From assembly GCA_963842525.1 (NCBI GenBank), contig CAWJGT010000009.1, positions 1,600,001 to 1,664,000 on the forward strand: a DNA stretch of 64,000 nucleotides. Direction: 5' to 3'. The notes under the pieces were generated by a model. That model searched no databases. It was not told where the DNA came from and was given only the letters and a program-made list of their open reading frames with translations. The position numbers were made by a program, and so were the translations under genes. Below, piece after piece: positions 1 to 53,050 of the stretch; the first letter of the stretch is position 1; every line of letters begins with the position of its first letter. Origin of the DNA: an uncultured Holophagales bacterium (GTDB lineage: Bacteria > Acidobacteriota > Thermoanaerobaculia > Multivoradales > UBA5704).

Positions 1-3000
1 ATCTCGCTGGGCGGATTGAGGAGTCGATACGCAGTGGTGCCACGTTGCAGGCACCGCCCATCGAGCCGATCGCGCGCGACGGGGAGCTGCCCCTGTCTTT
101 CGCCCAACAGCGACTATGGTTTCTGGATCAGCTCCAGCCGGGCAATCCATTCTACAACGTGCCTTTCGTCGTCCGTTTGGCCGGACGGTTGGAGGTGCGC
201 GCTCTGGAGAGGACGTTGAGTGAGGTCGTGCGCCGGCACGAGGTGCTGCGGACCTGCTTCCCCAGCCAAGGAGGCGAGCCGGTGCAGCGGATTCAAGCTG
301 CGGAGGCCTGGCGGATCCCGCTGATTGATCTCTCGGGCCTGCCCGCTGCGGTACGGAAAGCCGAAGAGAGGCTCCATGCGTCGGCCGAAGCCAAACGGGC
401 GTTCGATCTAGCGCGGGGCCCTTTGCTGCGGATGAATCTGCTGCGGTTGGGGGAGGAAGATCATACCGCGATCTTCCTTCAGCACCATATTGTTAGCGAC
501 GCCTGGTCGACAGGCCTGTTGCTCCGCGAGGTGACGAGCCTCTACGGAGCCTTCAAGGGAGGCTCGATGTCTCCCCTCCCCGAGCTGGACGTTCAATACG
601 CCGATTTCGCTCGCTGGCAGAGGCAGTGGTTACAGGGGGAGACCATCGCGGAGCAGCTCGCCTACTGGACGAGGCAGTTGGCCGACGCTCCTCCGCGGCT
701 CGAGCTTCCTACCGATTTCCCGCGGCCTGCCATGCCGAGCTTTCGAGGTGCTACGGAGCGCTTCGAGCTGGCAGAGGATCTGACTGTCGCTCTCCGGCGG
801 CTCAGCCGCGGCGAAGGAGCGACCTTGTTCATGACGCTGCTGGCGGCTTTCCAGATTTTGCTCTCTCGCTATGCGGGACAGCAAGACGTCAGCGTGGGTA
901 CTCCGATCGCCGGCCGCAACCGGCTAGAAACGGAGAACCTGATTGGATTCTTCGTCAATACGCTGGTGCTGCGGAGCAATCTTGCGGGCGATCCCGCCTT
1001 CCGCGACTTCCTGGTCCGTGTGAGAGAGGTGGCTCTGGAGGCGCACGCGCATCAAGACCTTCCTTTCGAGAGGCTGGTCGAGGAGCTGCAGCCGGAGCGC
1101 AGCCTGAGCCACATGCCATTGTTCCAGGTGTCGTTCACGCTCCTCAACGCACGTCGGGAAACCTTCAGGCTTGAGGGGCTGGAGATCCTCGGAGAGGAGA
1201 CTGGAAGCGAGACCGCGAAATTCGACCTCAATCTTTCCATGGCCGAGAGCGAGGAAAGGCTGTACGGGCGCTTCGAGTACAGTACCGACCTGTTCAGAGG
1301 CTCCTCGATCCGGCTCATGATCGAGCACCTCCAGAAACTGCTCGGCTCCATCACCGTGGAGCCTGGAGCGCGCATCGGCAGCCTCTCCCTCCTGACCGAG
1401 TCCGAGCGGAGGCAACTCCTCGTCGAACGCAATGCGACTCGCGCCGAGTACCCGAGGGATCGGTGCGTCCATCAGCTCTTCGAGGCCAGGGTGGACATGT
1501 GTGGAGAGGCTACAGCGGTCAGCGCCGGAGACCGGCATCTCAGCTATCTCGAGCTCGACCGTCGAGCCAATCGATTGACGAGCTTCCTACGTGCCAGGGG
1601 AACGCGGCCGGGGATCCGGGTCGGCCTCTACCTCGGGAACTCTCTCGAGACGATCGTCGCCATACTCGGGGTCCTGAAAGCGGGAGCGGCATACGTACCG
1701 CTCGATCCGGCTCATCCGGTCCAACAGACGGGTTTCATGCTGCGAGACTCCGAAGTGCTCCTCCTGCTCACCCAGCAGCGCTGGCTGGACAGGCTCGCGG
1801 CGAGCGGAATCGAGAGCTTCTGCCTGGATACGGAGTGGGAACGGATCGAGCAGGAGAGCCCCGAGAAGCTTACGGTCGACGTCCAGCCCGAATCGCCGGC
1901 TTACGTGATCTACACGTCAGGTTCTACCGGGCAGCCGAAAGGGGTGGAGATCCCGCACCGCGCCTTGACAAATTACGCGTGGTGGGCGAGCGAGGTCTAT
2001 GTTCGGGGCGAGGAGGTAGCTTTTCCCCTCTACTCTTCGCTGTCCTTCGACCTTACTGTCACCTCGGTTTACGCGCCGTTGATCACCGGCAACCGTATCG
2101 TCGTCTGCGGCGGCACGTCTTATGAATCCACAGTCCGCGAGATTCTGCGCGACGGCCAAGTGGATGTGCTCAAGCTGACCCCAAGCCACCTGGCGCTGAT
2201 CAAGGACTTGGACAACCGCGGATCGAGGGTCCGGCGTCTCATCGTAGGTGGGGAAGCGCTGACGACGGAGCTGGCGCGGCGTATCCTGGAGAGCTTCGGA
2301 GGAGAAGTCGAGATCCTGAACGAGTACGGTCCCACCGAGGCGACGGTAGGCTGCATGCTGCACCGCTTCGATCTTCTACGGGACCGGAGGAGCTCGGTGC
2401 CGATCGGCGGACCGGGCGCAAATGTCTACGTCTACATCCTGGATGAGTCACTGTGTCCGGTTGCCGGGAACGTGACAGGCGAGCTGTACATCGCGGGCGA
2501 CGGCCTGGCGCACCGATACTTGAACCGCGAGGAGCTGACGGCGGAGAGGTTCGTCGACAATCCCTTCATCATCGGTGAGAAGATGTACCGCAGCGGCGAT
2601 CTGGCCCGCTGGTTGCCAGAGGGAGGGATCGAGTTCGTCGGCCGCCGTGATCAACAGGTCAAGTTCCATGGCTACCGGATAGAGCTCGACGGCATACGCT
2701 GCGCGCTGAACGAGCATCCTCTGGTCCGGGACAGCGTGGTGACGATCCGGCGTGACGAGGCCGGCCAGGAGTTGCTGGTGGCCTTCTATGTTGCGCGGCA
2801 AGCATTGCGTGCGGAGGAGCTGCGCAGCTTTCTCGCCGAACACCTCATCGCGGAGACGGTGCCCAATCTCTTCGTCTATCTGCGTCGGCTGCCACTCACT
2901 CTCAACGGCAAGGTCAACTATGCCGCTCTGCCCTCGATCCAGGAGGCGCGCAGTCATCTGGAGCGAACCTTCATCATGCCGAGTACGCCAAGCGAAGAGG

Positions 3001-6000
3001 TCCTGGCGGGGATCTGGGCTAGGGTGCTCGGGCTCGAGAAGATCGGAAGCACGGAGAATTTTTTCGGCTTGGGGGGGCACTCTCTGCTGGCGACCCAAAT
3101 CGCTTCCCGTGCGCAGGAAGCTTTTGGCATTGAGCTGCCGCTACGTAGCATCTTCGAGGAACCGACCATTGCCGGTCTGGCGAGGAAGATCGAATCACTG
3201 ATGCGGCAAGGGAGGGCGCGGGAGACACCGCGGATCGAACCTGTGCCTCGTGGTCTCCCGCTTTCCCTCTCCTTCGCTCAGCAGCGGCTTTGGTTCCTCC
3301 AGCAGTTCGAGCCAGGTTCCGCGAGCTATAACCTGCGGATCGGAGTGAGGCTTCAAGGGAAGTTGGATGTCAGGGCTCTGGGATCGAGCTTCAACGAGAT
3401 CGTTCGCCGCCATGAGGTCCTGCGCACGACCTTCCCGACGGTCGACGGCGAGCCGCGGCAAGTCATCGCGCCCGCAGCACCGCTTGCCGTACCACTGATC
3501 GATCTGACACAGTCAGGAGGGGCCGAAGCGGAGGCCCGGAGAATCGCAGGGTTGGAAGGGCAGCGTCCCTTTGAGCTGAGCCGCAGTCCTGCCTTGCGGT
3601 GTCAGCTATTGCGTCTGACCTCCGAGGACCACGTCGTACTCGTTACCATGCACCACATAGTGAGTGATGCAGGGTCGATGGGGATCATGGTACGGGAGCT
3701 GATGACCCTGTATGAGGCGTTTCGCACGGGGGCCCAGTCACCTCTTCCTGAGCCACTGGTGCAGTATGCGGACTTCGCCGTCTGGCAGCGGCATTGGCTT
3801 GTCAGAGAGACTCTGGAGGGAGAGCTGGAATACTGGCGCGATCGGCTCCGTGGCCTGCCTCCGCTGCTACAACTGCCGATCGACCGTCCGCGCCCCGCAG
3901 TCCAGACGACCACGGGGGCTGTCCACGCCTTCTTGTTGCCCAAAGACCTTACCGAAAGCTTGCGAAGGCTGGCCCTGCAAGAGGGAGCGACGCTTTTCAT
4001 GGCATCGGCCGCCCTCTTCCAGGCCCTGCTGGGACGTATGGCGGGCCGGGAGGATATCTGTGTCGGCGTCCCTGTCAGCGGACGTGACCGGCTAGAAGTC
4101 GAAGGGCTGATCGGATTCTTCGTCAACGTTCTGGTCCTGCGGGGAGACCTCGCGGGCGATCCGAGCTTTCCGGAGTGGCTGAAGCGGGTCCGTACGGACA
4201 TACTGGAGGTTTACAGCCACCGCAACTTGCCCTTCGAAAAGCTGGTCGAGGAGTTAGTGCCGGAACGCAATCTGGCCTACTCGCCCCTATTCCAGGTGAT
4301 GCTCACTTTCCAGAACAACCCGATCGAAGGGGTGGAAGCTTTCAGGCTGCCAGATCTTGCGGTGACGCCGTTCGGGGTGGCGAGGAGCACGGCCAAGTTC
4401 GATCTCACACTGTCGCTGGTCTTGACCGCCGGTGGTTTGTCTGGAGTGTGGGAGTACAACAGGGACCTGTTCGATGCTGCGACCATCATCCGGACCGCCG
4501 GGCACTTTCAGACCCTTGCCGCGGAAGCCGTCGCCAGCCCAACCAAGAGCCTGTCGCAACTCGCAATCCTAACGCGGGCGGAGCGCCATCAGGTCTATAT
4601 GGAATGGAGCGGCGGCTGCGATGAATGGCCGCGGGTTCGAACCGACGAGCTGTTCGAGGCGCAGGTCCGCCGCAGGCCGGCAGCAGCGGCGGTGGTCTGG
4701 GAACAGGAGTCGTGGAGTTACCGTGAGCTCGATACCCGGGCAGAGAAGTGGGCCCGTTTCCTCCGGGGAGTCGGCGTCGGTCCGGAGGTGCGGGTCGGCC
4801 TTTGCACCCAGAGATCGCCCTGCCTGATCACGGGTATGCTGGGGATCTTGAAAGCCGGCGGTGCATTCGTGCCGCTGGATCCGGCTCATCCGCGCGAGCG
4901 GCTGGAAATGCTTCTGAAGGACTCGGGAGCGGCGATGGTGCTGACGCAAAGGCACTTGGCCGGAGCCTTCTCCGCGGCGGATCTTCCGATCCACCTTCTT
5001 GATGTGGACCCAGAGGTGCCGGATGGCGCCATCCTCGCCCCGGGCGCGCCCGTCGATTCTCTAGCCTATGTGATCTATACCTCGGGCTCGACGGGAAAGC
5101 CGAAAGGGGTGATGGTCTCCCATGCGAGCCTCTCCCCGATGCTTCTATGGAGCCGCGGGTATCTCGGTCTGAGCGAGCGGACTCGGGTCTTGCAAAACCT
5201 CTCTTTCGGCTTCGATTTCGGTATCTTCGAGCTCCTCACCACCCTCGTCTCCGGGGCGACGCTGTACATTCCAGGAGAGGATGACCGGGGAGATCCAGCG
5301 CGCTGGGCCGCCTTGGTACGGGAACATGGCATCAACACGGTTCATACGACTCCATCGTTCTTTCGTGAAGTGATGAAGACGGGAATCCGGCTCGAGGAAT
5401 TGGAGGTCCTCCACCTTGGAGGTGAAACGCTCTATCGAGGTGACGTGAAGTCGTTGACAGAGGTGACGGGAGAGGCGTGTGCTCTCTACAACGGCTACGG
5501 ACCGACCGAGGCGACGATCAACAGTCTCATTTTCAAAATCGACAAAGAGGGGACCGAAGGTCTGAGCGTACCGATCGGCCGTCCGTCGGCGAACAACTTG
5601 GCCTATGTACTGGACCGAGAGGGGGAGCCCGCGCCGATCGGAATTCCAGGTGAGCTGTACGTGGGAGGGGGAGGGGTGGCGCGCGGTTATCTCGAGCGAC
5701 CCCGGCTGACCGCCGAGAGGTTCATCCCCGATCGGTGGGGAGCCGAGGCCGGCGGGCGTCTCTATCGGACCGGTGATCTGGTTCGCTGGCTGCCCGGTGG
5801 CAACATCGAGTTCCTGGGGCGGACGGACGACCAGGTCAAGGTGCGCGGAGTGCGCATCGAACCGGGTGAGATCGAAGCCGTGCTCACGGCTCATTCTCAG
5901 GTACGGCAGGCGTTGGTGACCGTGCGTGAGGACGCCGTCAAGGGGAGTCAGCTCGTCGCCTACGTGGTCGTGACGGAGGGCCAGGACATGTCGGGTCGCC

Positions 6001-9000
6001 TGCGGGAATGGCTGCGTCAGCAGCTCCCGTACTACATGGTGCCCGCGGCCTTCGTCATATTGTCGGAGCTGAAGCTCACGGCAAGTGGCAAGATCGACCG
6101 CCGGGCTCTGCCGGAGCCTGTACAGGACGCAGCGGAGGGAGGCTCATCGCCACGCAACGCGATCGAGGAGGCTGTGGTATCGATCTGGGACGAAGTCCTG
6201 CACCGCGATCAGATCGGGATCCGCGACAATTTCTTCGCGCTGGGCGGGCACTCCCTACTCGCCACCAGGGTCATGTCCAGGGTGCGGCACACCTTCGGGA
6301 TCGAGCTGCCATTGCGCAACCTGTTCGAGGCTCCAACCGTGGTGGAGCTCGCGCAGCGAATCCGGCACGAGATGGGGCGTACGCCCAGACTGCAAGCTCC
6401 CTCTCTGGTTCCCGGCGCATTGGCGGAAAGGACTGGGCCGGCGCCGCTGTCGTTCTCTCAGCAGCGCCTCTGGTTCCTGCACCAGCTCGATCCCAGGTCT
6501 ACGGCCGAGAACCTGGTGCTGGCGGTGCGCCTCGCGGGCCGTCTGGATGCTGCGGCTCTCGACGGAGCGATGAGCGAGATGGTCTGCCGCCACGAGTCGC
6601 TCCGTACCGTGTTCTGGGTCGCGGACGGCGAGCCCGTCCAAGTCGTACAACCCGCGCAGGACTTCGTGTTCCCGTCCGTCGACCTCAGCGGCTTGGGGGG
6701 GCTCGCCGAACCGACGGCCCGGCGGCTCGCCTTGGAGCAGGCTGGGCAGCCATTCGACCTCGCCCGTGGGCCTCTCTTCCGGCCCTTGCTGCTGCGGCTG
6801 CGTGCCGAAGACCACCTGGTGCTGATGATGATGCACCACATCATCTGCGACGGCTGGTCGATGGGGATCCTGGCCCGGGAGTTGGGCGCGCTCTACAGAG
6901 CCTTCCATGAAGGCCAGCCTCCGGCTCTCCCCGCATTGGCCGTGCAGTATCCGGATTACGCCCGCTGGCAACGCCAGTGGTTGACCGGAGACGCCTTGGA
7001 GAGTGCTCTGGCGTATTGGCGCGGGCAGCTCGAAGGCGTGCCGGCGCTGCTCCAACTGCCGACCGATCGGCCGCGGCCGGAGATCCAGTCGTTCCGAGGA
7101 GATGCCCGGGTATTCGTCCTGGAGGAAGACCTGACAGAAGGGCTCCGCACGCTCGCACAGGAGGAGAGAGCAACTCTCTTCATGGTGCTGCTGGCGGGAT
7201 TCCAGGTATTGCTCGCCCGTCTTTCGGGACAGGAAGACCTGGCGGTCGGGACACCGATCGCGGGCCGCGATCACCTGGAGATCGAAGGCTTGATCGGCTT
7301 CTTCGTCAATACCCTGGTGCTACGCGCGGAGTTGTCGGCCGATCCCAGCTATGTAGATTTCCTGAGCCGGACGCGGAGCCGGGCCTTGGACGCCTACGCT
7401 CAGCAGGAGCTACCTTTCGAGAAGTTGGTCGAGGAGCTCGCGGTTGAACGCAGTCTCATGCATAGCCCGCTCTTCCAGGCGATGTTCGTACTTCAGAACA
7501 CGCCGGCAAGCTCCCTTGATCTACCAGGATTGAGCTGGACGTCGATCCCGACCGAAGAGACGACGGCGAGGTTCGATCTCGTCCTCTCGCTGAGCCAACA
7601 GGCGAATCGACTCAACGGAGCCCTTAGATATAACACCGACATCTTTGATGCAACCACCGCGCAGCGGATGGTGGAGCATTTCCAGGCTCTGCTCGGCGCG
7701 GTGATGGCTGATCGGCGGCAGCCTGTCTGGGCGCTGCCTCTCCTCACCTCCGAGCAGAGACACCAATTGCTCCTCGAATGGAACGACACCCGAGCTCGTG
7801 ATCGCGACATCCCGCTCCTCCGCCTCCTCGAAGCTCCTCTTGAGGAGCGCCCTGGTTCACTCGCCGTGGTCTGTGGAGAGGAGGAGCTGACCTATGCGGA
7901 TCTCCATCGTCGTGCCGGCAGGCTCGCGCGCCGCCTGTGCCGGCTCGGGGCGGGGCCGGATGTCGTGGTGGGGCTTCACCTCGACCGCTCTCCCGGAATG
8001 GTCGTCGCGATCCTTGCTGTCCTGAAAGCGGGAGGAGCTTACTTGCCTCTCGATCCCCTTCAGCCCGCGCAGCGGCTGACCTCCATTCTTGCGGAGGCAG
8101 GGGTACAGGTGCTGCTGACGCAGCGGGGCTTGGCCGCCGGATTGCCGTCGTTCAAAGGCGAAGTGGTGCTGCTCGATGACAAGGAGCTCGATGACAAGGA
8201 GAAAGATGAGATCAATCCCGCGGCCGGGCAGGATCGCGATCGGACCGGCACCGCGCTGCCTGAAAACCTGGCGTATCTGATCTATACCTCAGGTTCGACA
8301 GGAGGAGCGAAAGGGGTTGCCGTGACCCGGCGCGGCCTCGTCAACCTGATCCAAGCGAGTGCCGCGTGCCATGGGCAGGTCGGTTCCCTGTTGCTGCTGT
8401 CGTCATTTTCGTTCGACATGTCGGTGGTGAGTCTCTTCTGGACCCTCGGTCAGGGCGGGACGCTCGTGCTGCCGGTACCATCGCCGGTCGTAGACCTGCC
8501 CATGATTCATAGGTTGATAGTCGAGCGGCAGGTGTCGCACCTGATCTGTATTCCGTCGCTTTACTCCATCTTGATCGAGATGTCGGCACCCGGGGCCCTG
8601 GCATCCCTGCACAGCGTCAGGGTGGCCGGAGAGATCTGTCCTACCGGACTGGTCGCGAGTCATCGGAGAGCGCTCCCTCACGCCGATCTGTTCAACGAGT
8701 ACGGCCCTACGGAAGGCACGGTGTGGAGCAGCGTCCATCGGGCCGACGTCGCGCAGCCGGAGCTCCAGATCCCCATTGGACGCCCGATCGCCAACACCCG
8801 GATTTACCTTCTCGACCGTCGCCTCCGGCCTGTGCCATTGGGCAGCTCGGGAGAGATGTTCCTCGGCGGCATGGGCTTGGTGCGCGGCTATCACCGGCGG
8901 CCCGGTCTTACTGCGGAGACGTTCATTCCGAATCCGTGGGCCGAAGAGCCCGGGGAGCGGCTGTACCGGACAGGAGATGTCGCCCGCTTCCGAGCCGATG

Positions 9001-15611: not shown

Positions 15612-15640
15612 CGGCGTCTAGAAGGAAGGAAGCCCGATCC

Positions 15641-17508: not shown

Positions 17509-17528
17509 GAGCGATCAGGAGGCCTGCA

Positions 17529-18518: not shown

Positions 18519-18533
18519 ATAGCAGGAGGAGCC

Positions 18534-21500: not shown

Positions 21501-24500
21501 CGGGCAGACGACGACGACGGCGAAGCTCGATCTCGATCTGAACATGGGCGACGCGGAGGACGGGCTCGGCGGATCCCTGGAATACAACACGGACCTGTTC
21601 GACCGCACCACGGCCCAGCGCTTCCTCCAGCATTTCTCCCGCCTGCTCGAAGACATCGTCGGCGACCCGGACCAGAGGATCTCGGACCTGCGGCTGTTGG
21701 GTGATCCCGAGGTCCAGCAGCTGCTGGTCGAGTGGAACGACACGGCTGCCAGGGGAGGGGAGGGTGGGATCCACGAGATCATCGCGGCACAGGCCGAGCG
21801 CCAGCCGAATGCGCTCGTCGTCGTCTTCGGCGAGGAGCGCCTGACGTACCTTGATCTGGATCGCCGCGCCAATCAGGTGGCCCGGTATCTCTCTTCTCTC
21901 GGAGTCGGGCCTGAGGTCCTGGTCGGGCTCTGCCTGGAGCGCTCTCTCGACATGGTGGTAGGGCTGCTGGGGGTCATGAAGGCCGGCGCCGCCTATCTCC
22001 CGTTGGATCCTTCCTACCCGGCCGGAAGGCTGGCGTTCATGTTGGAGGATGCTCAGCCCTCGGTGTTGCTGACGAACGAGCAAGCCGCCCAACGCCTGCC
22101 GGTCTACTGGGGGCTCACCGTGAGCCTGGATGGGGAACGTGCAGCGATCGCCGCGGCGGGCGAAGGGCGGCTGGACGGCGGCGCAGGACCGGAGAACACC
22201 GTTTACGTGATCTACACTTCCGGCTCGACGGGCTCGCCGAAGGGGGTGGCGGTGTCGCACCGCGGGTTGCACAACCTGGCCGAGGCGCAGATGCGAGGTT
22301 TCGGCTTGACCAGGGAGAGCCGGGTCCTCCAATTCGCCTCGTTGAGCTTCGATGCTTCGATCTCGGAGATCGCGATGACCTTGTGCGCCGGGGCGGCTTT
22401 GCATCTGGCGCCACGCGAGGTCCTGATGTCGGCGCAGAGCCTTGCCCGGCTTATCGAGGACAGCGGGATCACGCATGTCACTCTCCCCGCTTCGCTGCTG
22501 TCGTCGCTCGATCCTGGCGATCTCCCTTCCGCGATCACGGTCATCGCCGCGGGTGAAGCCTGTCCTGCTGAGCTGGTGGAGCGTTGGACGTCGAGGCACC
22601 GGCTCTTCAATGCCTACGGGCCCACCGAGAGCACCGTATGCGCCAGCTTCGACCGTTGTGCGGAAGGCGACCAGCCATCGATCGGCCGCCCGATCGACAA
22701 CCTCCAGACCTATCTTCTCGATGATTGCTCCCGGCCCGTGCCGGTCGGGGTGGTGGGTGAGCTCCACATCGGGGGACTGGGGCTGGCGCAAGGTTACCTG
22801 CGCCGGCCTGACCTGACGGCGGAGAGGTTCATCCCCGGGCCGCTCGGGCAGCCAGGGGCGCGGCTGTACCGGACGGGCGACCTGGCCCGCTATCGCGCCG
22901 ACGGCCGCCTCGACTTCGTCGGCCGCCGCGATCAGCAGGTCAAGGTCAGGGGCTTTCGGATCGAGCTCGGCGAGGTCGAGGCAGCGCTGCTGCAATATCC
23001 TGGGGTGCGGGAAGCCGCGGCTCTCGCGCGCGGCAAATCCTTGGCGGAGCGCCGCCTCGTGGCCTATCTGAGCTGCCGCCAGCCGGAGAGGCCCGCAGCG
23101 CTGGAGGTGCGCCGCTTCCTCCAGGGCCGCCTGCCCGACTACATGATCCCTTCGGTGTTCGTATTCCTGGATGCGCTGCCGCTGCGCCCGAACGGCAAGA
23201 TCGACCGCGACGCCCTCCCTGAGCCTGGGATCCAGGTGGCCCAGGAGAACAATGGTCACGCGGTGCCTCGCAACCCGGTCGAGGAGACGCTCGCCGACAT
23301 CTGGGCGGAGGTGCTCGGGATCGACCGGGTGGGGATTCACGAGAGCTTCTTCGATCTCGGCGGCTACTCGCTGTCCGCGACCCAGGTGCTGGCCAGGGTG
23401 CGCGAGTCCTTCGGGGTGGAATTGAGCCTCGGTCGCTTTTTCGAACGGCCGACGATCGCGGCGTTCGGGGCGGACGTGGAGCAGGCGATCCGCTCCGGGA
23501 ACGTTCAGATCCCGCGACGGCCGGCCTCCCGCACCGGCGACCTGCCGCTCTCCTTCGCTCAGGAGGTGGTCTGGCTCGCCGAGCAACGGGAGCCCGGTCG
23601 GTATGCGGCCCACGTCCCCTTCGCCTTCCGCTTGAGCGGGGACCTCGACGTGGCGGCTCTCGAAGCGAGCCTCAACGAGATCGTGCGGCGCCATGAGGTT
23701 TTGCGCACGACGTTCCCTGTCGCCGCTGGCGTGCCGTGCCAGAGAGTCCACCCGTTCCAACGCCTGCCGCTGCGCACGATCGACTTCGAGGCTGTGCCGC
23801 AGAGCGGGCAACTGGCTGCGGTGACCGATCTGGCACGGCAGGAGGCGAGGCGGCTTTTCGACCTGGAGCGGGGCCCTCTCACCCGCTGGCTGCTCTTTCG
23901 TCTGGATTCTCGGGAGCATGTGCTCCTGCTGGTGTGCCACCACATCGTCATCGATCAATGGTCCGGCGGCATCTTCTCCCAGGAGATCAAGGAGCTTTAT
24001 CAAGCCTTCCTGGAAGGCCAGGCCGTACCCCTGGCGGAGCTGCCCGTCCAGTATGCGGACTTCGCCTCCTGGCAGAGACAGTGGTTGCAGGGAGAGGTCC
24101 TCGAGGCCCAACTGGCCTACTGGCGCCACCGACTGGCGGGCGCCGCGGCGCTCGCGCTGCCCACGGACGCTCCGCGGTCAGCAGCCCTCTCTGCCCACAG
24201 CGCCGACGTTTCCGTGCTCCTCTCGCCGACGGTCACTGCGGCCCTCCATGCGCTGAGCCGGCGGCAGGGCGCCACCTTGTTCATGACCTTGCTGGCGGCT
24301 TACAAGCTCCTGCTCCATCATTTCACGGGTCAGAGCGACATCGTCGTCAGCTCTCCGATCGCCAACCGCAGATGGCGCGAGATCGAACCTCTGATCGGCT
24401 TCTTCCCGAACATGCTGCTCCTCCGCACCGATGTCGGACGGGCTGCCAGCTACCTGGACCTGCTGCGCAGGGTGAGAGAGGTTACGCTCGAGGCCTACAC

Positions 24501-24930
24501 CCACCAGGACCTCTCCTTCGAAGTCCTGGCGGAGAAGATCGGCGAGGTCGCGTCGCGAGAATTCCTGCGCGTTTCTTGCAATTTCTATAATGCGCCCGCG
24601 CCGCCGCTGCAGCTCAAGGGGCTCAGCCTGACGCGTGTCGACGTGGGACTGGAGTTGACGGAGACCGACCTGGTGCTCCTCCTTCAGGAGTCTCCGCTAG
24701 GCCTCCGGTGCGGATTCTTCTATCGGCGAGACCTCTTTAAGCCGGGGACGATGGTCCGGTTGAAGGAACGGTTTCAGGCACTGCTGGAAAGCGTCGCCGC
24801 CGATCCCGAGCAGACGCTTGCGGATCTGATGCAGGAGATGGACAAGGTCGGAGGCGAGGTCGGCGCGGTGGGCGCGAGGTTCTTCCCCCTGACGCAACCT
24901 GGATCGCGAGAGCAGTGGGACCTGTGGTGA
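18534..24930 (+). CDS. NRPS A(acidic, Glu/Aad-like)-T-C-A(Tyr)-T-C, frameshift near 21048
   Basis: ORFs 18534..21704 and 20926..24930 join by removing one C in agcttcccgcggg (giving VQSFRGSFVG). Codes DARHLALMTK and DASTIAAVCK; T motifs GGHSL and GGYSL; C motifs HHIASDAWS and terminal HHIVIDQWS. Confidence 0.93.
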
Positions 24931-25003
24931 TGAGGGTGTGCCGTCGGCAAGTGATCTGATAATGGGAGCAGGAGGGCATGAGTCAACAAGCCGGAGGGGT
25001 ACG

Positions 25004-27415
25004 ATGAAAGACATGCTGTGGCAGAGCCTGCGCTATTCCGCCCGCACGCTGATCAAGAGTCCCTCGTTCAGCGTTGTCGCCATCCTGGCGCTCGCCCTTG
25101 GGATCAGCGGCAATACGGTGATCTTCAGTGCCCTGAGCGCCATCCTCATGCGGCCTCTCCCCTATGAGGACGCAGATCGACTGGTCTTGATCTGGGAGAC
25201 GGACGCCGGGCAGGCGATGACGGATAGCGTGGTCCCTGAGAACTTCTTCACCTGGCGCCAGGAGAGCCGTTCCTTCGAGCAGATGGCCGGCTACTTCCCC
25301 TTCTTCCGCTTGACCCTCCTCGGAACGGACCGGCCTGAAGAGGCGATGGGGGCCAGCGTGACGGGCAACTTCTTCAGCACTTTAGGTGCTCAGGCCGCCT
25401 TCGGCAGGACGTTCTCCACGGCGGCCGGCCCGGATCCCGGCGTCGTCCTCAGCGACGGGCTCTGGCATCGGCTGTTCGCCGCGGACCCGAAGGTCATCGG
25501 CAAGGCGCTTCATCTGAGCGGTGAAGTCTACCAGGTCCTCGGTGTGATGCCGAAGGGGTTCCAGTTCCCCGAAGGTGCCGAGTTGTGGGTACGGGCGCCG
25601 GAGGACCTCCCTCGACTGCCCATGGAGATCGACCCGGGAGAGTTGAGGCAGATCCGCTACATGCGGGTCCTCGCACGCATGCGGCAGGGGACGACCGTGC
25701 CGCAGGCGAGGGAAGAGCTCGCCGCCATCCACTCCCGGCTGGACCGCGGCCGTAGCGTCAATCTGGTGCCGCTGCGAAACCATTTGCTGGGCAACGTCCG
25801 CCCCGTCCTCATGGTCCTGATGGGGGCCGTCGCGCTGGTGCTGCTCATCGCCTGCATCAATGTCGCCAATCTGCTCTCCGCCCGGGCCACCGGGCGGCAC
25901 CGGGAGATGGCCGTCCGATTGTCCCTGGGTGCCGGCCGGAACCATCTGGTCAGGCAATTGCTGGCCGAAAGCGTTCTGCTCGCTCTGGTGGCAGGGGCCC
26001 TCGGATTGCTCCTGGCTCGTTGGGAGCTGAGTCTCCTCCTGAAGTTCATTCCCGTGGACGTCCCTCGCCTCGACGAGATCGGTCTCAACGGTTGGGTGCT
26101 GGTTTTTACCGCGGGGATCTCGGTGCTCACCGGAATCCTCTTCGGTCTGTTGCCGGCCCTGCAGAGCTCGAGCCCCGATCTCGTCGAATCCTTGAAGGAC
26201 GGGGCAAAGGGAAGCAAGGGACCGCGCCGTCAGCGGACCCAGACTTCCCTTCTGGTCTGGGAAGTCGCGATGACCCTGGTGCTGCTGATCGGAACGGCTC
26301 TGCTTTTACAAAGCTTCTTGGGGCTTCAGCGGGTCGATCCTGGTTTCAACAGCTCGCGGCTCCTTACCTTCAAGGTTACCCTGCCGGCTTCCAAGTATTC
26401 TGAGCCGGCTCAGATGGCGAGCTTTTTCGATCGCCTTCTCGGTCGCCTGGAGGCCATGCCGGACCTGGAGGCCGCTGTTGCCTCGCTGACTCCCCCTCCT
26501 GTCAGTAACGACATCAAGAGCGCCTTCCTGATCGAGGGCAGGCCGGCTCCGCCTCCCGACCAGGAGCGCGCGGAAGGGACGGAGTTCGTCAGCCCGCACT
26601 ACTTCCGAGCCCTCGGCATCCCGCTGCTCAAAGGACGCGAGTTCACGCCGCAAGACACTGCCGAGGCGCCGGGGGTCGCTGTCGTCAGCGCTGCGATCGC
26701 ACAGCAGTATTGGGGAGAACAGGACCCGATCGGGCAGCGGATCACCTATGACAACCCAGCCGATCCGGAGGCGAGGTGGTTCACGATCGTCGGAGTTGTC
26801 GGGGACGTGCGGGCGGTGGGATTCCAGCAGGCCGTCCGCCCCATGGTCTACAGGCCCTACAAGCAGCAGCCCTGGCCCTTCATGACCTTGATGCTGCGGA
26901 CCCGGAGCAACCCCGAGGATGCGGTGCCCCTGGTACGGCGGGCTGTGGCGGAGATCGATCCGGAGCAACCGATCGCAAACGTCAGTCCCATGGATCAAAC
27001 CATCGCGCAAGCCGTGGCCCAGCCTCGGTTTACCTTGCTGGTCGTCGCTGTCTTCGCCGTCATGGCCACCCTGCTCGCGGCGTTAGGAATCTACGGCGTC
27101 GCCGCCTATTCTGTGACCCAACGCCAGCACGAGATCGGGCTGCGGATAGCGCTCGGAGCTGAGCGGAGGGCTATCATGGGGCAGTTCCTCCGGCAAGGGC
27201 TCTGGTGGACCTTGCTCGGCATTCTCCTCGGCCTGGGCGGAGCGCTGGCTCTCACTCGGGTTCTGCGCAGCCTGCTCTTCGGGGTCAGCGCCATGGACGT
27301 GGGAACCTACGCCGGGGTATCCGTGCTGTTCATCATCATTTCACTCCTAGCGAACCTGATCCCAGCCTATCGCGCTTCCAGGGTAGAGCCTGGGGTCACC
27401 TTAAAAGCGGAGTAG
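25004..27415 (+). CDS. ADOP-type duplicated MacB/FtsX ABC permease
   Basis: LRYSARTLIKSPSF start, LLIACINVANLL, RHREMAVRLSLGA and QRQHEIGLRIALGA motifs, about 800 aa, no ATPase domain. GGAGG RBS before the ATG at 25004. Confidence 0.92.
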   Translation: MKDMLWQSLRYSARTLIKSPSFSVVAILALALGISGNTVIFSALSAILMRPLPYEDADRLVLIWETDAGQAMTDSVVPENFFTWRQESRSFEQMAGYFPFFRLTLLGTDRPEEAMGASVTGNFFSTLGAQAAFGRTFSTAAGPDPGVVLSDGLWHRLFAADPKVIGKALHLSGEVYQVLGVMPKGFQFPEGAELWVRAPEDLPRLPMEIDPGELRQIRYMRVLARMRQGTTVPQAREELAAIHSRLDRGRSVNLVPLRNHLLGNVRPVLMVLMGAVALVLLIACINVANLLSARATGRHREMAVRLSLGAGRNHLVRQLLAESVLLALVAGALGLLLARWELSLLLKFIPVDVPRLDEIGLNGWVLVFTAGISVLTGILFGLLPALQSSSPDLVESLKDGAKGSKGPRRQRTQTSLLVWEVAMTLVLLIGTALLLQSFLGLQRVDPGFNSSRLLTFKVTLPASKYSEPAQMASFFDRLLGRLEAMPDLEAAVASLTPPPVSNDIKSAFLIEGRPAPPPDQERAEGTEFVSPHYFRALGIPLLKGREFTPQDTAEAPGVAVVSAAIAQQYWGEQDPIGQRITYDNPADPEARWFTIVGVVGDVRAVGFQQAVRPMVYRPYKQQPWPFMTLMLRTRSNPEDAVPLVRRAVAEIDPEQPIANVSPMDQTIAQAVAQPRFTLLVVAVFAVMATLLAALGIYGVAAYSVTQRQHEIGLRIALGAERRAIMGQFLRQGLWWTLLGILLGLGGALALTRVLRSLLFGVSAMDVGTYAGVSVLFIIISLLANLIPAYRASRVEPGVTLKAE

Positions 27416-27439
27416 GGCCGACAGTCAGGGAGAGACCCC

Positions 27440-29446
27440 ATGCTGATACTCGGTATTCATGGCGGCCACAAGCGCGATTTCGAGGACAACGGCGCGGGTT
27501 ACGGTCTGCACGACGGCGCAGCCGTCCTGCTCAGAGACTCCGAGGTGGTGGCGGGAATCGAGGAGGAGCGCCTGAACCGGATCAAGCACTCCAACTTTTT
27601 TCCTTACGAGTCTCTCAAGTTCTGCCTCGGACAAGCCCGCGTCGAGCTGGAGGAAGTGGATCGGATCGCCCTCAACCACAACCAGCAGACTTTTGACATG
27701 ATCGCCCGCAACCGGTTGCTGGTGGACCTCAACGAGTCATTTCTGGATGGCCGCTCCATGATGGGAGCCATGTTCCGAGACGCTTTCGGCGTCGACATCG
27801 CGAGCAAGATTCGCTTCTGTCATCACCACATCGCTCATGCTGCGAGCGCCTTCTTCGCCTCCGGCTTTCAAGACTCACTGATCGTGACGCTGGACGGCGA
27901 CGGAGACGGCCTCTGTGGCCTGGTTCTGGTCAACGAGGGTGGTAGCTTCCGGCCCTTGCGCGAGTACCCCATGAAGCATTCGCTGGGGGATTGGTATTCG
28001 CTCGTGATCAAGATCCTCGGCTACGACCGCTTCGACGAATATAAGGTCATGGGGCTTGCCCCACACGGCGATCCGGAGGTTTATCGCGGTCTGTTCCGGC
28101 AGCTTTACCGGCTGATGCCGCAGGGCGTGTATGAGCTTGCGACGCGCGAGCAGCACCTGGGACTTTTCCTGCAGGCAGGACTCCTACAGAAGATTCGCCG
28201 CAAGGGGGAACCCTTCTCGCAGGTGCACAAGGACTTCGCGGCCGCTCTCCAGGCCTCGCTCGAAGAGATCGTGCTTCACATTGTAAGTCATTACCAGAGA
28301 GAAACCCGGCAGAAGAGGCTTTGCCTCGCCGGCGGGGTGGTCCACAACTGCAGCATGAACGGCCGTATTCTGGAGACCGGGCTCTTCGAGGAGGTGTTCG
28401 CTCAGCCGGCGGCCCACGACGCCGGCACGGCTCTGGGCGCGGCTTGGACAGTGCTGTACGAAGAGACCGGAGTCCGGTGCTCGCCGATGACTCACGTCTT
28501 CTGGGGGAGCGATGTCGGGGAGGCGGAGGCCATCCGGCGCGAGTTGGAGGTGTGGAGCGACTTCCTCGAGGTCGAGCAGGTGGACGACATCATGGCGCGT
28601 GCAGCCCAATTGATCGCGGAAGGGGCCGTGCTCGGGTGGGTCCAAGGCCGCTCTGAGTTTGGTCCTCGCGCGCTAGGCAACCGCAGCATCCTGGCCGACC
28701 CTCGGCCGGCGCGGAACAAGGACCGTGTCAATCAGATGGTGAAGAAGAGGGAGGGTTATCGGCCTTTTGCACCTTCGGTGCGGGAGGAAGACGCGGCCGA
28801 CTTCTTCGAGCTGCCAGCGGGAGGCACGCAATACCAGTTCATGATCTTTGTGGTCAAGGTCAAGGAGGAGATGAGGGAGAGGCTTGCGGCCATCACCCAC
28901 GTCGATGGTACCGCGCGCATCCAGACCGTTTCACGGCATACCAACCCGCGCTTCTGGCAGCTTCTGGGCGAATTCAAGAAGCTGACAGGGATCCCGATTC
29001 TTCTCAACACCTCGTTTAACAACAATGCAGAGCCGATTGTAGATTCGGTCGACGATGCCGTGGCCTGCTTCCTGACCACTGGCCTCGACTACCTTGTGGT
29101 GGGAGACTACCTGGCCAGCAAGAGGGAGAAGGAGCTGCCGGTTCCGCTCTGCCTGGGTCTGGTGCCGACCTTGCGGCCTAGCCGCAAACTGGTCAAGAGG
29201 CTTGGGCAGCGCGGTGGGGGCGAGAAATACTTCATCGAGAGCACTGCGAGTCGATATTTCGGTGAGGACCGGATCGAAGTTTCGCTATCGCTGTTCCAAG
29301 CCTTGACCAATGTCGATGGGAGGCGGTCGCTGCTGGAGCTGCTGCGGGAGCAGGGCGTCGCAGATGACTCGATCCAAAGCGCTGGTCACGAGGCCGTGGA
29401 CCTGTGGATGCGGCGTGTTCTCGTGCTACGCCCCGCCGCGCCCTGA
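27440..29446 (+). CDS. Carbamoyltransferase, NodU/CmcH family
   Basis: HDGAAVL, EEERLNRIKH, HHIAHAASAF, EYKVMGLA, EFGPRALGNRSIL and LLNTSFN motifs. Confidence 0.95.
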   Translation: MLILGIHGGHKRDFEDNGAGYGLHDGAAVLLRDSEVVAGIEEERLNRIKHSNFFPYESLKFCLGQARVELEEVDRIALNHNQQTFDMIARNRLLVDLNESFLDGRSMMGAMFRDAFGVDIASKIRFCHHHIAHAASAFFASGFQDSLIVTLDGDGDGLCGLVLVNEGGSFRPLREYPMKHSLGDWYSLVIKILGYDRFDEYKVMGLAPHGDPEVYRGLFRQLYRLMPQGVYELATREQHLGLFLQAGLLQKIRRKGEPFSQVHKDFAAALQASLEEIVLHIVSHYQRETRQKRLCLAGGVVHNCSMNGRILETGLFEEVFAQPAAHDAGTALGAAWTVLYEETGVRCSPMTHVFWGSDVGEAEAIRRELEVWSDFLEVEQVDDIMARAAQLIAEGAVLGWVQGRSEFGPRALGNRSILADPRPARNKDRVNQMVKKREGYRPFAPSVREEDAADFFELPAGGTQYQFMIFVVKVKEEMRERLAAITHVDGTARIQTVSRHTNPRFWQLLGEFKKLTGIPILLNTSFNNNAEPIVDSVDDAVACFLTTGLDYLVVGDYLASKREKELPVPLCLGLVPTLRPSRKLVKRLGQRGGGEKYFIESTASRYFGEDRIEVSLSLFQALTNVDGRRSLLELLREQGVADDSIQSAGHEAVDLWMRRVLVLRPAAP

Positions 29447-29467
29447 GCACCCAACGAGAGGTGGCGC

Positions 29468-30571
29468 GTGCTCCTACGGAAACCGACCCTCGCACTACGC
29501 TATCTGCGCCTCAAGGTGAACCAGAAACTCGTCCGTATGAAGGGCCCGGCGGGCGTCATCCCCCTCGAACAGGCGAAGGAGCACGCCGCGCGTTGCGTGC
29601 GGGCCTACGAGCGCGAGCCCGACGCGATCCGCAAGCAGCTGAGCGTGCTGGAGTCGCTGTGCGAGGTCGGCGTCACCCGTCCGAGCGACATGTCGCGGCA
29701 GTGCAACTTCTACGACCCCTCGGTCCTCGCCATTCTCAAGCCGTTGCCGCTGTTCCGCTCCGGCGACGAGCTGATCGATAGCGCGACGAGCAGGGTGTAC
29801 GACGAGCTCTCCGAATCTATGCAGGGGGAGCAGTGGTTCGTCTTCATGAATCACGGCTACCTGCCGGCTTCCGGAGCCGTCCCGCCGCTCGAGAGGGACG
29901 ACGACCGATGGAGGCACCAAGTCCTCCTGTACAAGTACCTGCTGGACACCGCGGAGGGGCTCGGGCTGTCCCGCCCGCTGAGCGAGTCGAGCCTGCTGGA
30001 CGTCGGCTGCGGACGCGGGGGCGGGCTCTCCGCGATGGAGCGGCTCTTCGGGCTGAAGCGCGCCGTCGGGCTCGACCAGAGCGAGAGGCAGATCGAGTTC
30101 TGCCGGGAGCGACACGGCCGCCTCGGGATCGAGTTCCATCAGGGCAGCGCGTTGGCTTTGCCGTTCGCAGATCAGACCTTCGATCTCGTCTCCAACGTCG
30201 AGTCGTCGCACCTCTATCCCAACGTGGAGAAGTTCCTCTCCGAGGTCCGTCGCGTCCTGAAGGACTCCGGAATGCTTCTCTTCACGGACGCGCGCGACGC
30301 CTGGTTCGGAACGCACCTCCTCGAAAGGCAGATGCGCGATTCGGGCCTCACCATCCTTCGCAGGGAGGACATCACCGACCGGGTGCTGGCCGCTTGCCGC
30401 GAGGACGCGACCCGCTTCGAGACGGTGTTTCGTGACGTCGCGGCGGCCGACAAATGGAAGCACCCCCAAGCCGTCGCGCGCTCGAAGGCGCGCCAGTATC
30501 GCCTCGGTGTGTCTCGCTACGAGGTGTACATCTTGAGGAAGGACGCCCGCCCCACCGGCCACATAGTATAG
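29468..30571 (+). CDS. Class I SAM-dependent methyltransferase with N-terminal extension
   Basis: FMNHGY, LLDVGCGRGGG and NVESSHLYP motifs, as in phthiotriol-type O-methyltransferases. Start codon uncertain. Confidence 0.85.
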   Translation: MLLRKPTLALRYLRLKVNQKLVRMKGPAGVIPLEQAKEHAARCVRAYEREPDAIRKQLSVLESLCEVGVTRPSDMSRQCNFYDPSVLAILKPLPLFRSGDELIDSATSRVYDELSESMQGEQWFVFMNHGYLPASGAVPPLERDDDRWRHQVLLYKYLLDTAEGLGLSRPLSESSLLDVGCGRGGGLSAMERLFGLKRAVGLDQSERQIEFCRERHGRLGIEFHQGSALALPFADQTFDLVSNVESSHLYPNVEKFLSEVRRVLKDSGMLLFTDARDAWFGTHLLERQMRDSGLTILRREDITDRVLAACREDATRFETVFRDVAAADKWKHPQAVARSKARQYRLGVSRYEVYILRKDARPTGHIV

Positions 30572-30614
30572 TACAGCGCCAATTCCGGGGCTCCATCGGG
30601 AGCAGAGACAGGTC

Positions 30615-32207
30615 ATGACCGCCGAGAAGCTCTACCTCAAGCCGAATGTCGTCGCCGAGCCTCTGGTCGATCACTGGTACGCGTGGTCGCACCTGATTCC
30701 TCCCGCGACGGCCGCCATGAACATCGTGGGCCGTCACCTCAAGATCATGGAGTCCTACGTCAAGGCGCCGCAGGTCCACAGTGCCGCGGTGAAAAACCCG
30801 GCCATGCTTGGCGGCCCCTTTATCGATTACAAGGTGCCGCGGGTTGCCGAGATCCAGGCCCTGATCGACAGGACGAAGCGGGAACGGGCCCACCTCATCG
30901 AGCTCGCCAGGGCCATCCAGCAACTCGACGACCTGCTCCGGCAGGAGGCCAGAGGCCACTCGCTGGAGCCGCTATACGCCCGCGTCCCGGAACCGCTACG
31001 CGGTTACGTGGAGCTCGTCTACGATCTCAATAACCAGCCCTCGTTCCGTCTCATCGAGCCGCTCCTCTACCGGAGCCCCTACTATGTGCCCTCGGCGCAG
31101 AGCCTGGTGCTGGCGCTGATCAACCAGGACGACCGGCCGTTCGTGCTCAGCACGCCGCGGCTGCCGAACGCGGGGGACGTGCACCTGCGGCGTCCGTTCC
31201 GTCATCCCGGCATCGACGAGCTCTTCAAGATGAAGGCCGTGCCGCAGACCTTCGCCTACATCAAGGAAGCGCTGGAGTTGGAGGATGAGCACGATGAGGC
31301 GTTCGCCCGCTTCCTGACCCCCGAGCCGCAGCCCGCCTATGAGCCCTACCGGGGGAGCAGCGTGCGGTGGCGCTACTTCGGCCACGCCTGCATCCTGGTA
31401 GAGACGGCGGAGGTGCGCATCCTGCTCGATCCGGTGCTGAGCTACACCTACGAGAGCGACATCTCCCGGTATACGTACAAGGATCTGCCCGACTGGATCG
31501 ACTTCGCCCTGATCACCCACAACCACCAGGATCACATCCTGTTCGAGACGATGCTCCAGCTCCGCCACAAGATCGGCAGCGTGGTGGTTCCACGCAGCGG
31601 CAGCGGGGAGTTGCAGGATCCCTCCCTCAAGCTGCTGCTCCGGCAGATCGGCTTCACGAACGTCTACGAGATGGACGAGATGGAGACTCTCGAGCTGGGG
31701 GGAGCGAAGATCACCGGGCTCCCGTTCCTGGGTGAGCACGCCGATCTCGACATCCGGAGCAAGCTCGCCTATCACTGCCGGCTCGGCCAGCGCTCCATGC
31801 TCTTCGCGGCGGACTCCTGCAACATCGAGCCGCGGCTCTATGAGCGCCTGCAGGAGGCCGTGGGCAACATCGATGTCGCCTTCATCGGGATGGAGTGCGA
31901 TGGCGCGCCGCTGTCGTGGGTTTATGGACCTCTGCTGACGCGGCCGCTCGACCGCAAGATGGACCAGGGCCGCCGGCTGGCGGGCTCGAACTACGAGCGG
32001 GCCATCGATATCGTCAACCGTTTCCACTGCCGCGACGCTTACGTGTATGCGATGGGGCAGGAGCCCTGGCTCAACTACATTATGAGCGTGAAGTACACGG
32101 AGCAGTCGAACCCCATCATCGCGTCAAACAAGCTGATCGAGGACTGCCGCAGCCGTGGCATCCAGGCCGAGCGGCTCTTCGGAGAGAAGGAGATCCTGCT
32201 TTCCTAG
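30615..32207 (+). CDS. CmlA-type diiron beta-hydroxylase (metallo-beta-lactamase fold)
   Basis: N-terminal EPLVDHWYAWSHLIPPAT...MLGGPF, GHACIL, ITHNHQDH, FLGEHADL and YVYAMGQEPW; 530 aa, matching the CmlA/glycopeptide Tyr beta-hydroxylase family. Confidence 0.9.
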   Translation: MTAEKLYLKPNVVAEPLVDHWYAWSHLIPPATAAMNIVGRHLKIMESYVKAPQVHSAAVKNPAMLGGPFIDYKVPRVAEIQALIDRTKRERAHLIELARAIQQLDDLLRQEARGHSLEPLYARVPEPLRGYVELVYDLNNQPSFRLIEPLLYRSPYYVPSAQSLVLALINQDDRPFVLSTPRLPNAGDVHLRRPFRHPGIDELFKMKAVPQTFAYIKEALELEDEHDEAFARFLTPEPQPAYEPYRGSSVRWRYFGHACILVETAEVRILLDPVLSYTYESDISRYTYKDLPDWIDFALITHNHQDHILFETMLQLRHKIGSVVVPRSGSGELQDPSLKLLLRQIGFTNVYEMDEMETLELGGAKITGLPFLGEHADLDIRSKLAYHCRLGQRSMLFAADSCNIEPRLYERLQEAVGNIDVAFIGMECDGAPLSWVYGPLLTRPLDRKMDQGRRLAGSNYERAIDIVNRFHCRDAYVYAMGQEPWLNYIMSVKYTEQSNPIIASNKLIEDCRSRGIQAERLFGEKEILLS

Positions 32208-32623
32208 CCTGCTGCGGCGACAGGGTCTGGTGAGACAGGGAGACAGCGCGAGCCTGCTTCGAATGATACCTCGGAGGCGGAGGTCCGCAGCACGGGCGGC
32301 AGATCCGCCACGGACGTTCTCCTCGCCCGGCAGGGGCTGGAGAGCGACCCGCGGCTGGATCTCCTGGGCTGCACCGCACACCTCTACGAGATCACTCCTT
32401 GGATGACGGCAGACCGGGAGGGCTCACCGCCTCGGCCTTATGGCGGCAGCCCGGCGCTGCGACGCCGCAGGGATCCGTTCCTGCGTAGCTTCCGCCTTCC
32501 GCTTCCTCGACCGGCGGAGCCACCGAAGGGAAGCCTTGACGCGTGCCCACCCGAGCCGTGGGAAAGGCTAGGAGCCTGTCGGGAAACCCCTCCCCAGTGT
32601 CGAGAGGTGGTAAAATTGTCGGC

Positions 32624-33078: not shown

Positions 33079-33275
33079 TGTAGACGCCCGCCTTATTTCG
33101 TGACCGCCGCCTGAGTTTTTCCCAGTTTTCAGCGTGGTCAGGTAGATTCGTCGGCGCAGGAGTGCGGGACGATTTTGCCTGTGGAGAGGTCGGGCAAGGC
33201 AAGCGAAGCCCGCCGGGCTCTCCTTGTGTCTTTTGGCGGACCGGGGATGACCCGACGGGCTTCCGAGAGGAGGCC

Positions 33276-33839: not shown

Positions 33840-33930
33840 GTTGGTAACTACCCATCGCAGGGTTCTGCCACGAAGCTACTGGCGGGGGCTGTGGGATGGT
33901 CCCAGAGCCCGATTGCGGAGACTTCGTGCG

Positions 33931-46647: not shown

Positions 46648-46664
46648 GATCTAGTGCACCCGTC

Positions 46665-48431: not shown

Positions 48432-48434
48432 GGC

Positions 48435-53033: not shown

Positions 53034-53050
53034 GACGAGATCGGTCCTTT

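Follow-up and report, generated by a model that had tools for sequence, protein, structure and literature searches.

A probable 3' end of a long orphan NRPS/PKS assembly line with split hydroxylating modules in an uncultured bacterium of the Thermoanaerobaculia

The 64,000-nucleotide stretch analyzed here (hereafter the window) comes from an uncultured soil bacterium of the Holophagales and corresponds to positions 1,600,001–1,664,000 of contig C9 in the genome G000, a metagenome bin of 9.95 Mb in 34 contigs with ca. 67.5% GC (estimated completeness 96.4%, estimated contamination 3.36%). Its positions 1–32207 carry co-directional genes of nonribosomal peptide synthetases (NRPS) and of a type I polyketide synthase (PKS) together with genes of tailoring enzymes, and we consider it probable, with some room for doubt, that they are the 3' end (the last third) of a single orphan assembly line of ca. 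110 kb, located at C9 ca. 1,523,000–1,632,207. A first-pass annotation made from the sequence alone had proposed an acidobacterial source, and this agrees with an RpoC that is 94% identical to metagenome-assembled records of Thermoanaerobaculia/Acidobacteriota and with a cluster permease of the ADOP family.

All cluster genes of the window are on the plus strand (Table 1). Their domains were mapped by phmmer searches seeded with the window's own domains, with Pfam added, and follow the order C-A-T three times, KS-AT-KR-T-C and A-T-C-A-T-C (C, condensation; A, adenylation; T, thiolation; KS, ketosynthase; AT, acyltransferase; KR, ketoreductase). Pfam and the domain map show C, A and T in module order plus a KS-AT-(KR)-ACP module (ACP, acyl carrier protein), and the catalytic motifs were found as expected: HHxxxD in C, Cys and HGTGT in KS, GHS in AT and Tyr in KR. 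In the PKS module the KS Cys is kept, AT has NAFH and KR has YAGAN. The first gene begins ca. 3 kb before the window, with open frames from C9 1596807, and there are true gene overlaps, for example ATGA at 9704–9707. Every gene named by the first-pass annotation was recovered with Pfam; its list does not include the permease that follows the last NRPS gene.

Some of these genes need further comment. The AsnB-type amidotransferase truly starts at the MCG at 15641, giving an N-terminal nucleophile Cys. It scores as a genuine asparagine synthetase and has very many homologues (7,995 of 8,000 scored candidates, with E values of 1e-20 or lower; 120 of them, those listed, are 63–78% identical), and a pattern search of the genome collection gave only four distant matches to it, at most 39% identical. 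The carbamoyltransferase scores 173 bits against the NodU equivalog cut-off of 1000, so it is not NodU itself. The CmlA-type protein matches the structures 8a90 (498 bits) and CmlA 4jo0 (435 bits, E 4e-129, residues 8–523), and the ADOP permease is likely the exporter.

Table 1. Features of the assembly line and of its borders. Positions are those of the window unless C9 is given.
Feature	Position	Strand	Evidence or remark
826-aa protein with MupA-type luciferase-like monooxygenase domain; 857-aa protein with lantibiotic-dehydratase N-terminal domain only	C9 1,523,065–1,528,115		directly upstream of loading module
A domain, Gly-type, with embedded luciferase-like monooxygenase, then FkbM methyltransferase	C9 1,538,027–1,541,728		mid-line, directly before KS
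Module-13 A domain	C9 1,571,841–1,573,316		NAWFLGHVV; Asn replacing the usual Asp at first code position, otherwise Leu-like
TauD domain fused at end of ORF C (open reading frame)			Pfam
B12-binding radical-SAM protein	C9 1,582,937–1,584,619		PhpK P-methyltransferase family, 637 bits vs cut-off 600
Stand-alone TauD2	C9 1595849–1596886		Pfam
Frame break in A19	C9 ~1,598,430		outside window; splits gene starting ~3 kb upstream
NRPS gene, 3' part, three C-A-T modules	1..9707 (open frame 3–9707)	+	Pfam
T19, end	to 23	+	domain map
C20; A20; T20	81–1421; 1479–2912; 2994–3197	+	A20 DLTKIGEVG, Asn-type
C21; A21; T21	3261–4595; 4653–6092; 6153–6377	+	A21 DFFHHGGIN
C22; A22; T22	6435–7772; 7830–9296; 9369–9569	+	A22 DMVIRAEVW
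PKS-NRPS hybrid gene	9704..15611 (frames 9704–14740 + 14652–15611)	+	Pfam, domain map
KS; AT; KR; ACP; C24	9734–10855; 11288–12139; 13148–13747; 13976–14170; 14243–15560	+	
Frame break in C24	~14,686		just after HHIVCDG motif
AsnB-type glutamine-hydrolysing amidotransferase (Asn_synthase/GATase)	15641..17508 (Pfam frame 15518–17449)	+	TIGR01536 424 bits vs cut-off 267
Frame break in amidotransferase gene	~17,165		last ~112 residues read in wrong frame
Stand-alone TauD-family Fe(II)/2-oxoglutarate oxygenase, third TauD of cluster	17529..18518	+	Pfam; 55 nt upstream of A24 domain
Last NRPS gene (ORF H), A-T-C-A-T-C	18534..24930 (frames 18534–21704 + 20926–24930)	+	Pfam, domain map
A24; T24; C25	18573–20045; 20115–20321; 20391–21726	+	A24 DARHLALMT
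Frame break in C25	~21,045–21,049		
A25; T25; terminal C	21784–23199; 23269–23469; 23536–24828	+	A25 DASTIAAVC, Tyr-type; terminal C HHIVIDQ
ADOP-family duplicated MacB/FtsX-type permease	24938..27415	+	TIGR03434 908 bits vs cut-off 622; Pfam
NodU/CmcH-type carbamoyltransferase	27440..29446	+	Carbam_trans_N + Carbam_trans_C
Class I SAM methyltransferase	29468..30571	+	nearest fatty-acid / phthiotriol (carboxyl or hydroxyl) O-methyltransferases, under their cut-offs
CmlA-type non-heme diiron beta-hydroxylase	30615..32207	+	CmlA_N (PF18456) 330 bits + metallo-beta-lactamase fold
IS5-like transposase gene, cluster boundary	32543..37389	+	DUF772 32543–33103; DDE_Tnp_1 36712–37389
3375-bp insertion sequence interrupting IS5-like gene	33079–36452		rve/Mu-transposase-C protein + AAA_22 protein

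The first-pass annotation had suggested an extension upstream, and the line does continue for 72 kb beyond the window edge, where additional NRPS genes lie beside open frames that code for 4568, 3217 and 10975 aa. It begins at C9 ca. 1,527,900 with a fatty-acyl-AMP-ligase-like domain and a carrier (ACP) and comprises ca. 25 modules, three of them PKS modules, two of which, in the upstream part, are KS-AT-T without KR. The six-unit product first proposed is therefore replaced by the C-terminal end of a ca. 25-module line primed by a fatty-acyl ligase, and the product, which had been described as polar, would rather be a large amphiphilic lipopeptide, given the fatty-acyl priming. Two upstream A domains are unusual. 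The arrangement of an A domain with an embedded monooxygenase, found here in the middle of the line, belongs in myxothiazol and melithiazol to the formation of the terminal amide, where it closes the line. The Asn at the first code position of the module-13 A domain may indicate a substrate without an alpha-amino group. All this is set in a genome extremely rich in such genes, with at least 251 C, at least 218 A, 42 KS and 35 AT full-length domain matches that in total take up 929 kb of its 9.95 Mb.

A recurrent feature of the line is the split module. In three cases a C domain closes a protein, a TauD enzyme comes next (fused to the final C domain in one case, that of ORF C with its 10975 aa, and stand-alone in the other two) and the following protein opens with A-T. 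The acceptor proteins of both upstream cases begin with a C-like domain carrying PSLCAD instead of HHxxxDG, and the A domains behind it have an Asp-type code (after ORF C) and a Glu-type code (after TauD2). Over the whole genome, an A domain lies within 4 kb after six of the eight TauD-like genes, with codes that are Glu-type (three cases), Asp-type, Asn-type and DARHLALMT. The only structures matched by the window TauD and TauD2 at E up to 0.001 were 1y0z and 9yut, a resemblance that fits action on carrier-bound substrates. A split module with a 2-oxoglutarate beta-hydroxylase and an interface (I) domain was reportedly defined by Reitz and colleagues in 2019. In the myxoglucamide pathway, MxgA (C-Ox) and MxgB (I-A(Glu)-PCP; PCP, peptidyl carrier protein) couple the hydroxylation of PCP-bound Glu to condensation and can do without the interface domain (PMC13638107). 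The split C/TauD architecture is also described, in PMC7100376 and in the antiSMASH 8 text, for beta-hydroxy-Asp siderophores, with PtcB as an example.

Specificity codes were extracted by anchoring on conserved motifs (rules in GrsA numbering) and rechecked by an alignment based on hidden Markov models. Those of modules 20 and 25 agree with the textbook codes for Asn and Tyr, and in this respect the positions of both residues in the first-pass annotation fit. The codes of modules 21, 22 and 24, its X, Y and Z, have no residue assigned. The first four letters of DARHLALMT match the code of the microcystin methyl-Asp module, which we use as a lead only. Literature searching on the extracted codes and on two further codes returned no papers, and the connection of DARH with an acidic or iso-linked Asp is a tentative one.

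Epimerization (E), heterocyclization (Cy) and thioesterase (TE) domains had been reported as lacking, and the domain map, the HHxxxD motifs and the PF00975 search bear this out. Every C-like domain of the window has HHxxxD, leaving no Cy domain there, and no additional C-like domain lies between any T and the following C, leaving no E domain; the dual E/C motif was present in none of the 27 C-like segments examined. The PF00975 search of the whole genome gave 14 matches, none of them on C9 from 1.42 Mb to the end of the window. We did not find a dedicated release domain: a C domain closes the last protein, and the Pfam scan of the window genes contained no terminal reductase, although no search was aimed at reductases.

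From these domains a pathway can be proposed, for which we infer the substrates, the tailoring targets, the release chemistry and the joint working of the two compositional halves of the line described below. At each split module the residue bound to the carrier of the (I)-A-T protein would be beta-hydroxylated, in step with condensation, by the TauD enzyme fused or adjacent to the preceding C domain. Modules 20 to 22 would add Asn and two further residues. The KS-AT-KR-ACP module would then add malonate and reduce it, giving a statine-like gamma-amino-beta-hydroxy unit; such a unit had been predicted at first pass, and the KS-AT-KR-T module does stand after an amino-acid module, with its motifs present. 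The C domain that closes the PKS protein would condense the chain onto the residue loaded by A24, probably acidic, for which the adjacent TauD and AsnB-type enzymes would act; the latter might supply Asn or, alternatively, amidate the module-24 residue. Module 25 would add Tyr. This residue is the likely target of the CmlA-type enzyme, judging from the proximity of the genes and from hypeptin, where T-bound Tyr and Leu are substrates of a CmlA-type hydroxylase and Asn is the substrate of an accompanying 2-oxoglutarate enzyme (PMC8252469). The conserved terminal C domain would release the chain, and O-carbamoylation, methylation and export would come last. The beta-hydroxylations and the O-carbamoylation of the first-pass annotation remain plausible from the enzyme families.

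Part of this arrangement recurs in relatives. A search with A24-T24 over 401 genomes of the class gave matches at E up to 1e-180 in five, G000 included, all of one family, in which four of the 13 other genomes had them. In the genome G379 (contig C2, 35.9–53.5 kb) the order is KS-AT-KR-T-C, AsnB (71% identical), TauD (69%), A(DARHLALMT)-T-C-A-T-C, ADOP permease and ABC ATPase, downstream of which come a CHAT-domain protein and SecA; its 89.7-kb contig contained no TE, carbamoyltransferase, methyltransferase or CmlA homologue. In G418 (contig C1, 1,489.7–1,508.8 kb) the cassette has the same order, with a CmlA homologue (66%) and then a permease (43%) behind it. Common to both and to the window is the order KS-AT-KR-T-C, AsnB, TauD, A(DARHL[AS]LMT)-T-C-A(aromatic-type)-T-C and permease, with amino acid identities of 49–71%. 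The DARHL(A/S)LMT A domain opens its protein in all five genomes, with AsnB adjoining in four and TauD in three. There are also differences: G379 and G418 lack the carbamoyltransferase and the methyltransferase that the line of the window has, the GC content is 71% in them versus 63% in the present case, and the codes of the last A domain and of the A domain before the PKS are others, so that the products are related and not identical. Within five genomes of the same genus the carbamoyltransferase has no close orthologue (best 43–44% identical). Its synteny among 40 relatives led no further, the best matches (60% and 55%) being in other genera at loci that are not collinear; the same applies to the CmlA-type gene, whose homologues (88% and 75% in the genome collection; 92%, 84% and 83% in metagenomes) stand in other contexts and are uninformative on the cluster.

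In both relatives, as in the line of the window, the last domain is a C domain of the HHxxxD[Q/L] type that is not followed by a TE. The terminal motifs of the three genomes are HHIVIDQ, HHIVIDL and HHLIADQ, in which HHxxxD is kept, and these terminal C domains are 47–59% identical among themselves and 38–45% to their elongating counterparts. Because G379 and G418 also end in C without a TE, the terminal C domain is likely the true end of the line and, by prediction, the release catalyst; the linear product proposed at first pass finds no support here. We had considered that the insertion sequence (IS) elements at 32.5–37.4 kb might have cut off a last A-T-TE module, and rejected it as the main reading since the ends of G379 and G418 match, the permease comes next and, in G379, ordinary genes follow. 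Two observations speak against a terminal role of the C domain. Its nearest paralogues in G000 are ordinary elongation C domains, in the light of which release may be a recently derived function, and in two other genomes the corresponding C domain, the third, is not the last, with a further A domain after it in G238 and C-A-T-TE after it in G359. It is possible, although we would call it conjecture before we would call it probable, that the Thermoanaerobaculia have a family of lines defined by the statine PKS/AsnB/TauD/A(DARHL(A/S)LMT) cassette and by a dedicated terminal C domain (HHxxxD, then Q or L) in place of a TE.

The frameshifts seen by the first-pass annotation are present, with a further one near 17165, and at each of the four breaks (three in the window, one just upstream) the length of a short run is off by one base. 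We take them as most likely assembly errors because the same test applied to the whole genome found 86 adjacent split-domain pairs in the 929 kb of C/A/KS/AT-coding DNA, the essential gene rpoB is broken too, two breaks are missing from contigs of a soil run and the homologues are intact. The single-copy rpoB (C9 ca. 670,320–674,532) changes frame near 670,517 and so falls into two pieces, with rpoC intact, and this is direct evidence for indel errors in the assembly. The contigs of the soil run, X2, which are 576 nt (25 differences) and 889 nt (45 differences) long, deviate in length exactly at the two break sites that they cover: at 21045 a letter is missing from them, and behind 17165 they have an additional one. 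Among the homologues, most of the 120 AsnB proteins listed have 620–624 aa, against 602 aa for the protein called in the window; ORF H, with an X at its break, has 2131 aa and matches intact proteins of 2113–2142 aa from one end to the other at 57–60% identity; and the PKS-NRPS gene is one open frame in both G379 and G418. The other explanation is that the cluster, or at least its 3' half, is decaying, the breaks in A19, C24, AsnB and C25 being real and no product being made. Several facts pull in this direction. All four breaks are in the low-GC half, within 23 kb, and none in the 58 kb of the high-GC half upstream; IS elements abut the cluster; the X2 contigs, at ca. 95% identity, belong to a relative, showing that an intact form exists and not that this strain has it; no contig covers the break near 14,686; and the listed pieces of a further run, X1 (11 of 19 contigs at least 99% alike), cover no break site. 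Nevertheless we hold decay to be improbable, against the 86 equivalent breaks, the break in rpoB, the single-base nature of the differences and frames that are otherwise open and 50–71% identical to intact homologues over their full length.

The composition of the line raises a different question, its GC being 71–77% over C9 1,524–1,580 kb and 54–66% over 1,583–1,640 kb. The step (ca. 75% to ca. 57%) lies in a 540-nt intergenic region before the radical-SAM gene (C9 1,582,400–1,582,900), with a small unannotated ORF in it. The 3' half has 63% GC versus 72% in the other NRPS domains of the genome, ca. 3 standard deviations below the mean of the 469 full-length C/A matches (0.716, standard deviation 0.026); of these, 21 are below 0.66 GC and 16 of the 21 are found in C9 1.55–1.65 Mb, in or beside the 3' half. 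This suggests a foreign or recombinant 3' half, and the reading as one line has to face the fact that its halves may differ in origin or be wrongly joined, as well as the direct opening of ORF H with an A domain, lacking the interface domain of the other two split modules, and substrate assignments made by comparison of codes. There could instead be two adjacent lines, a high-GC lipopeptide line of 15 modules reaching to the C-TauD at C9 ca. 1,582,397 and a low-GC line, acquired separately, that has 10 modules, begins with the radical-SAM gene, ends with the CmlA-type gene and has its last six modules in the window; in a variant, recombination exchanged a resident homologous half for the present 3' half, and the product would then be hybrid. 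The strictly intergenic position of the step, the low GC of the 3' half, the IS copies at both outer borders and the lack of close orthologues of the carbamoyltransferase and of the cassette in the five genomes of the same genus are all in accordance with two lines. Yet the low-GC part has no loading module and its first protein opens with a C-like domain that is catalytically dead (PSLCAD), the last element of the high-GC part is the C-TauD that in known systems (PMC7100376, PMC13638107) requires such an I-A-T acceptor, and G379 holds the TauD, the I-A-T and a radical-SAM gene (40% identical) in one compositionally uniform line. The dependence of C-TauD on an I-A-T acceptor and the missing loading module of the low-GC part lead us to prefer one working line, and we regard two lines as rather unlikely. 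A chimeric contig, in which homologous NRPS regions of two populations were joined and the 3' half comes from another organism of lower coverage, seems to us very improbable, more so than any of the explanations above. It would account for the GC step and for breaks concentrated in the low-GC half, as lower coverage would give, and it could be favored by the 3.4-kb repeat of at least six copies at the right border and by the origin from a metagenome bin with its estimated contamination. However, the left junction has no repeat (only weak paralogue matches of 72–82% identity over at most 774 nt), the architecture across it is functionally coherent, a C-TauD followed by I-A(Asp)-T, and the closest relatives of the 3' half belong to the same family.

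The cluster is bounded on its right side by the IS5-like transposase gene and the 3375-bp IS that interrupts it. The latter has at least six copies at 99.9% identity, one of them inverted at C9 1,514,678–1,518,051, before the cluster, so that copies bracket the whole of it. Past the cluster, the window codes for a GAF-GAF-SpoIIE phosphatase (46233–48431), an AAA_21/DUF3696 protein (48767–49579), a CHAT-domain protein (53871–56915, minus strand), an M23 peptidase, a Uma2 endonuclease-like protein and a TIR-domain protein (60693–62756, minus strand), and this region, 46233–62756, may be a neighborhood of defense genes.

Compared with known systems, the line shares parts with several. Bleomycin-family lines combine an Asn-rich peptide, a gamma-amino-beta-hydroxy acid made by KS-AT-KR-ACP, a NodU/CmcH-type carbamoyltransferase and an asparagine-synthetase-like gene; relative to bleomycin, the present line lacks Cy/Ox, sugar genes and the PKS C-methyltransferase and has another module order. 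No collinear characterized cluster was found in the searches made, which did not include MIBiG, antiSMASH or BiG-SCAPE, and to this extent the absence of a known match claimed at first pass holds. The myxoglucamide cluster mxg (PMC13638107) is likewise an NRPS/PKS hybrid in which C plus a 2-oxoglutarate dioxygenase ends a protein and the next one opens with an interface domain without HHxxxDG, then A(Glu)-PCP, and the dispensability of that domain fits the third split module of the window, which has none; mxg differs in being a small line with a TE end and a glycolipopeptide product, with no CmlA-type, carbamoyltransferase or AsnB-type gene. The hypeptin cluster hyn (PMC8252469) also has a CmlA-type diiron hydroxylase and a 2-oxoglutarate oxygenase within one NRPS cluster, but has eight modules, no PKS, TE cyclization and no split modules. 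Siderophore clusters of the cupriachelin/potashchelin type resemble the present line in the TauD fused behind a terminal C domain, in having a stand-alone TauD too and in fatty-acyl priming, whereas the beta-hydroxy-Asp siderophore clusters have fewer than 10 modules (ca. 25 here) and siderophore transport genes (PMC7100376); Pfam scans of the window's listed ORFs gave no TonB-dependent receptor and no Fe-siderophore ABC or binding-protein family. The pairing of TauD-type and CmlA-type enzymes is already known from hypeptin (PMC8252469), and the split C/TauD/A-T logic from myxoglucamides and beta-hydroxy-Asp siderophores (PMC13638107, PMC7100376).

Orphan clusters of this ordinary kind are very numerous, and there is a precedent for each of the enzyme logics found in this one. 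We know of no natural product from the Thermoanaerobaculia, and a literature search on the class found no work on a compound. What the analysis contributes is a true extent of ca. 110 kb instead of 32 kb for the cluster, a reason against discarding it as dead, and a small conserved cassette which, together with termination without a TE, recurs in three genomes. If the tentative family exists, a hydroxylated and amidated acidic residue and an unusual release nucleophile would define a new lipopeptide scaffold of up to ca. 25 units, in which the cassette residue would possibly be an Asp bound through its side-chain carboxyl and which, in this strain, would additionally be O-carbamoylated and methylated.

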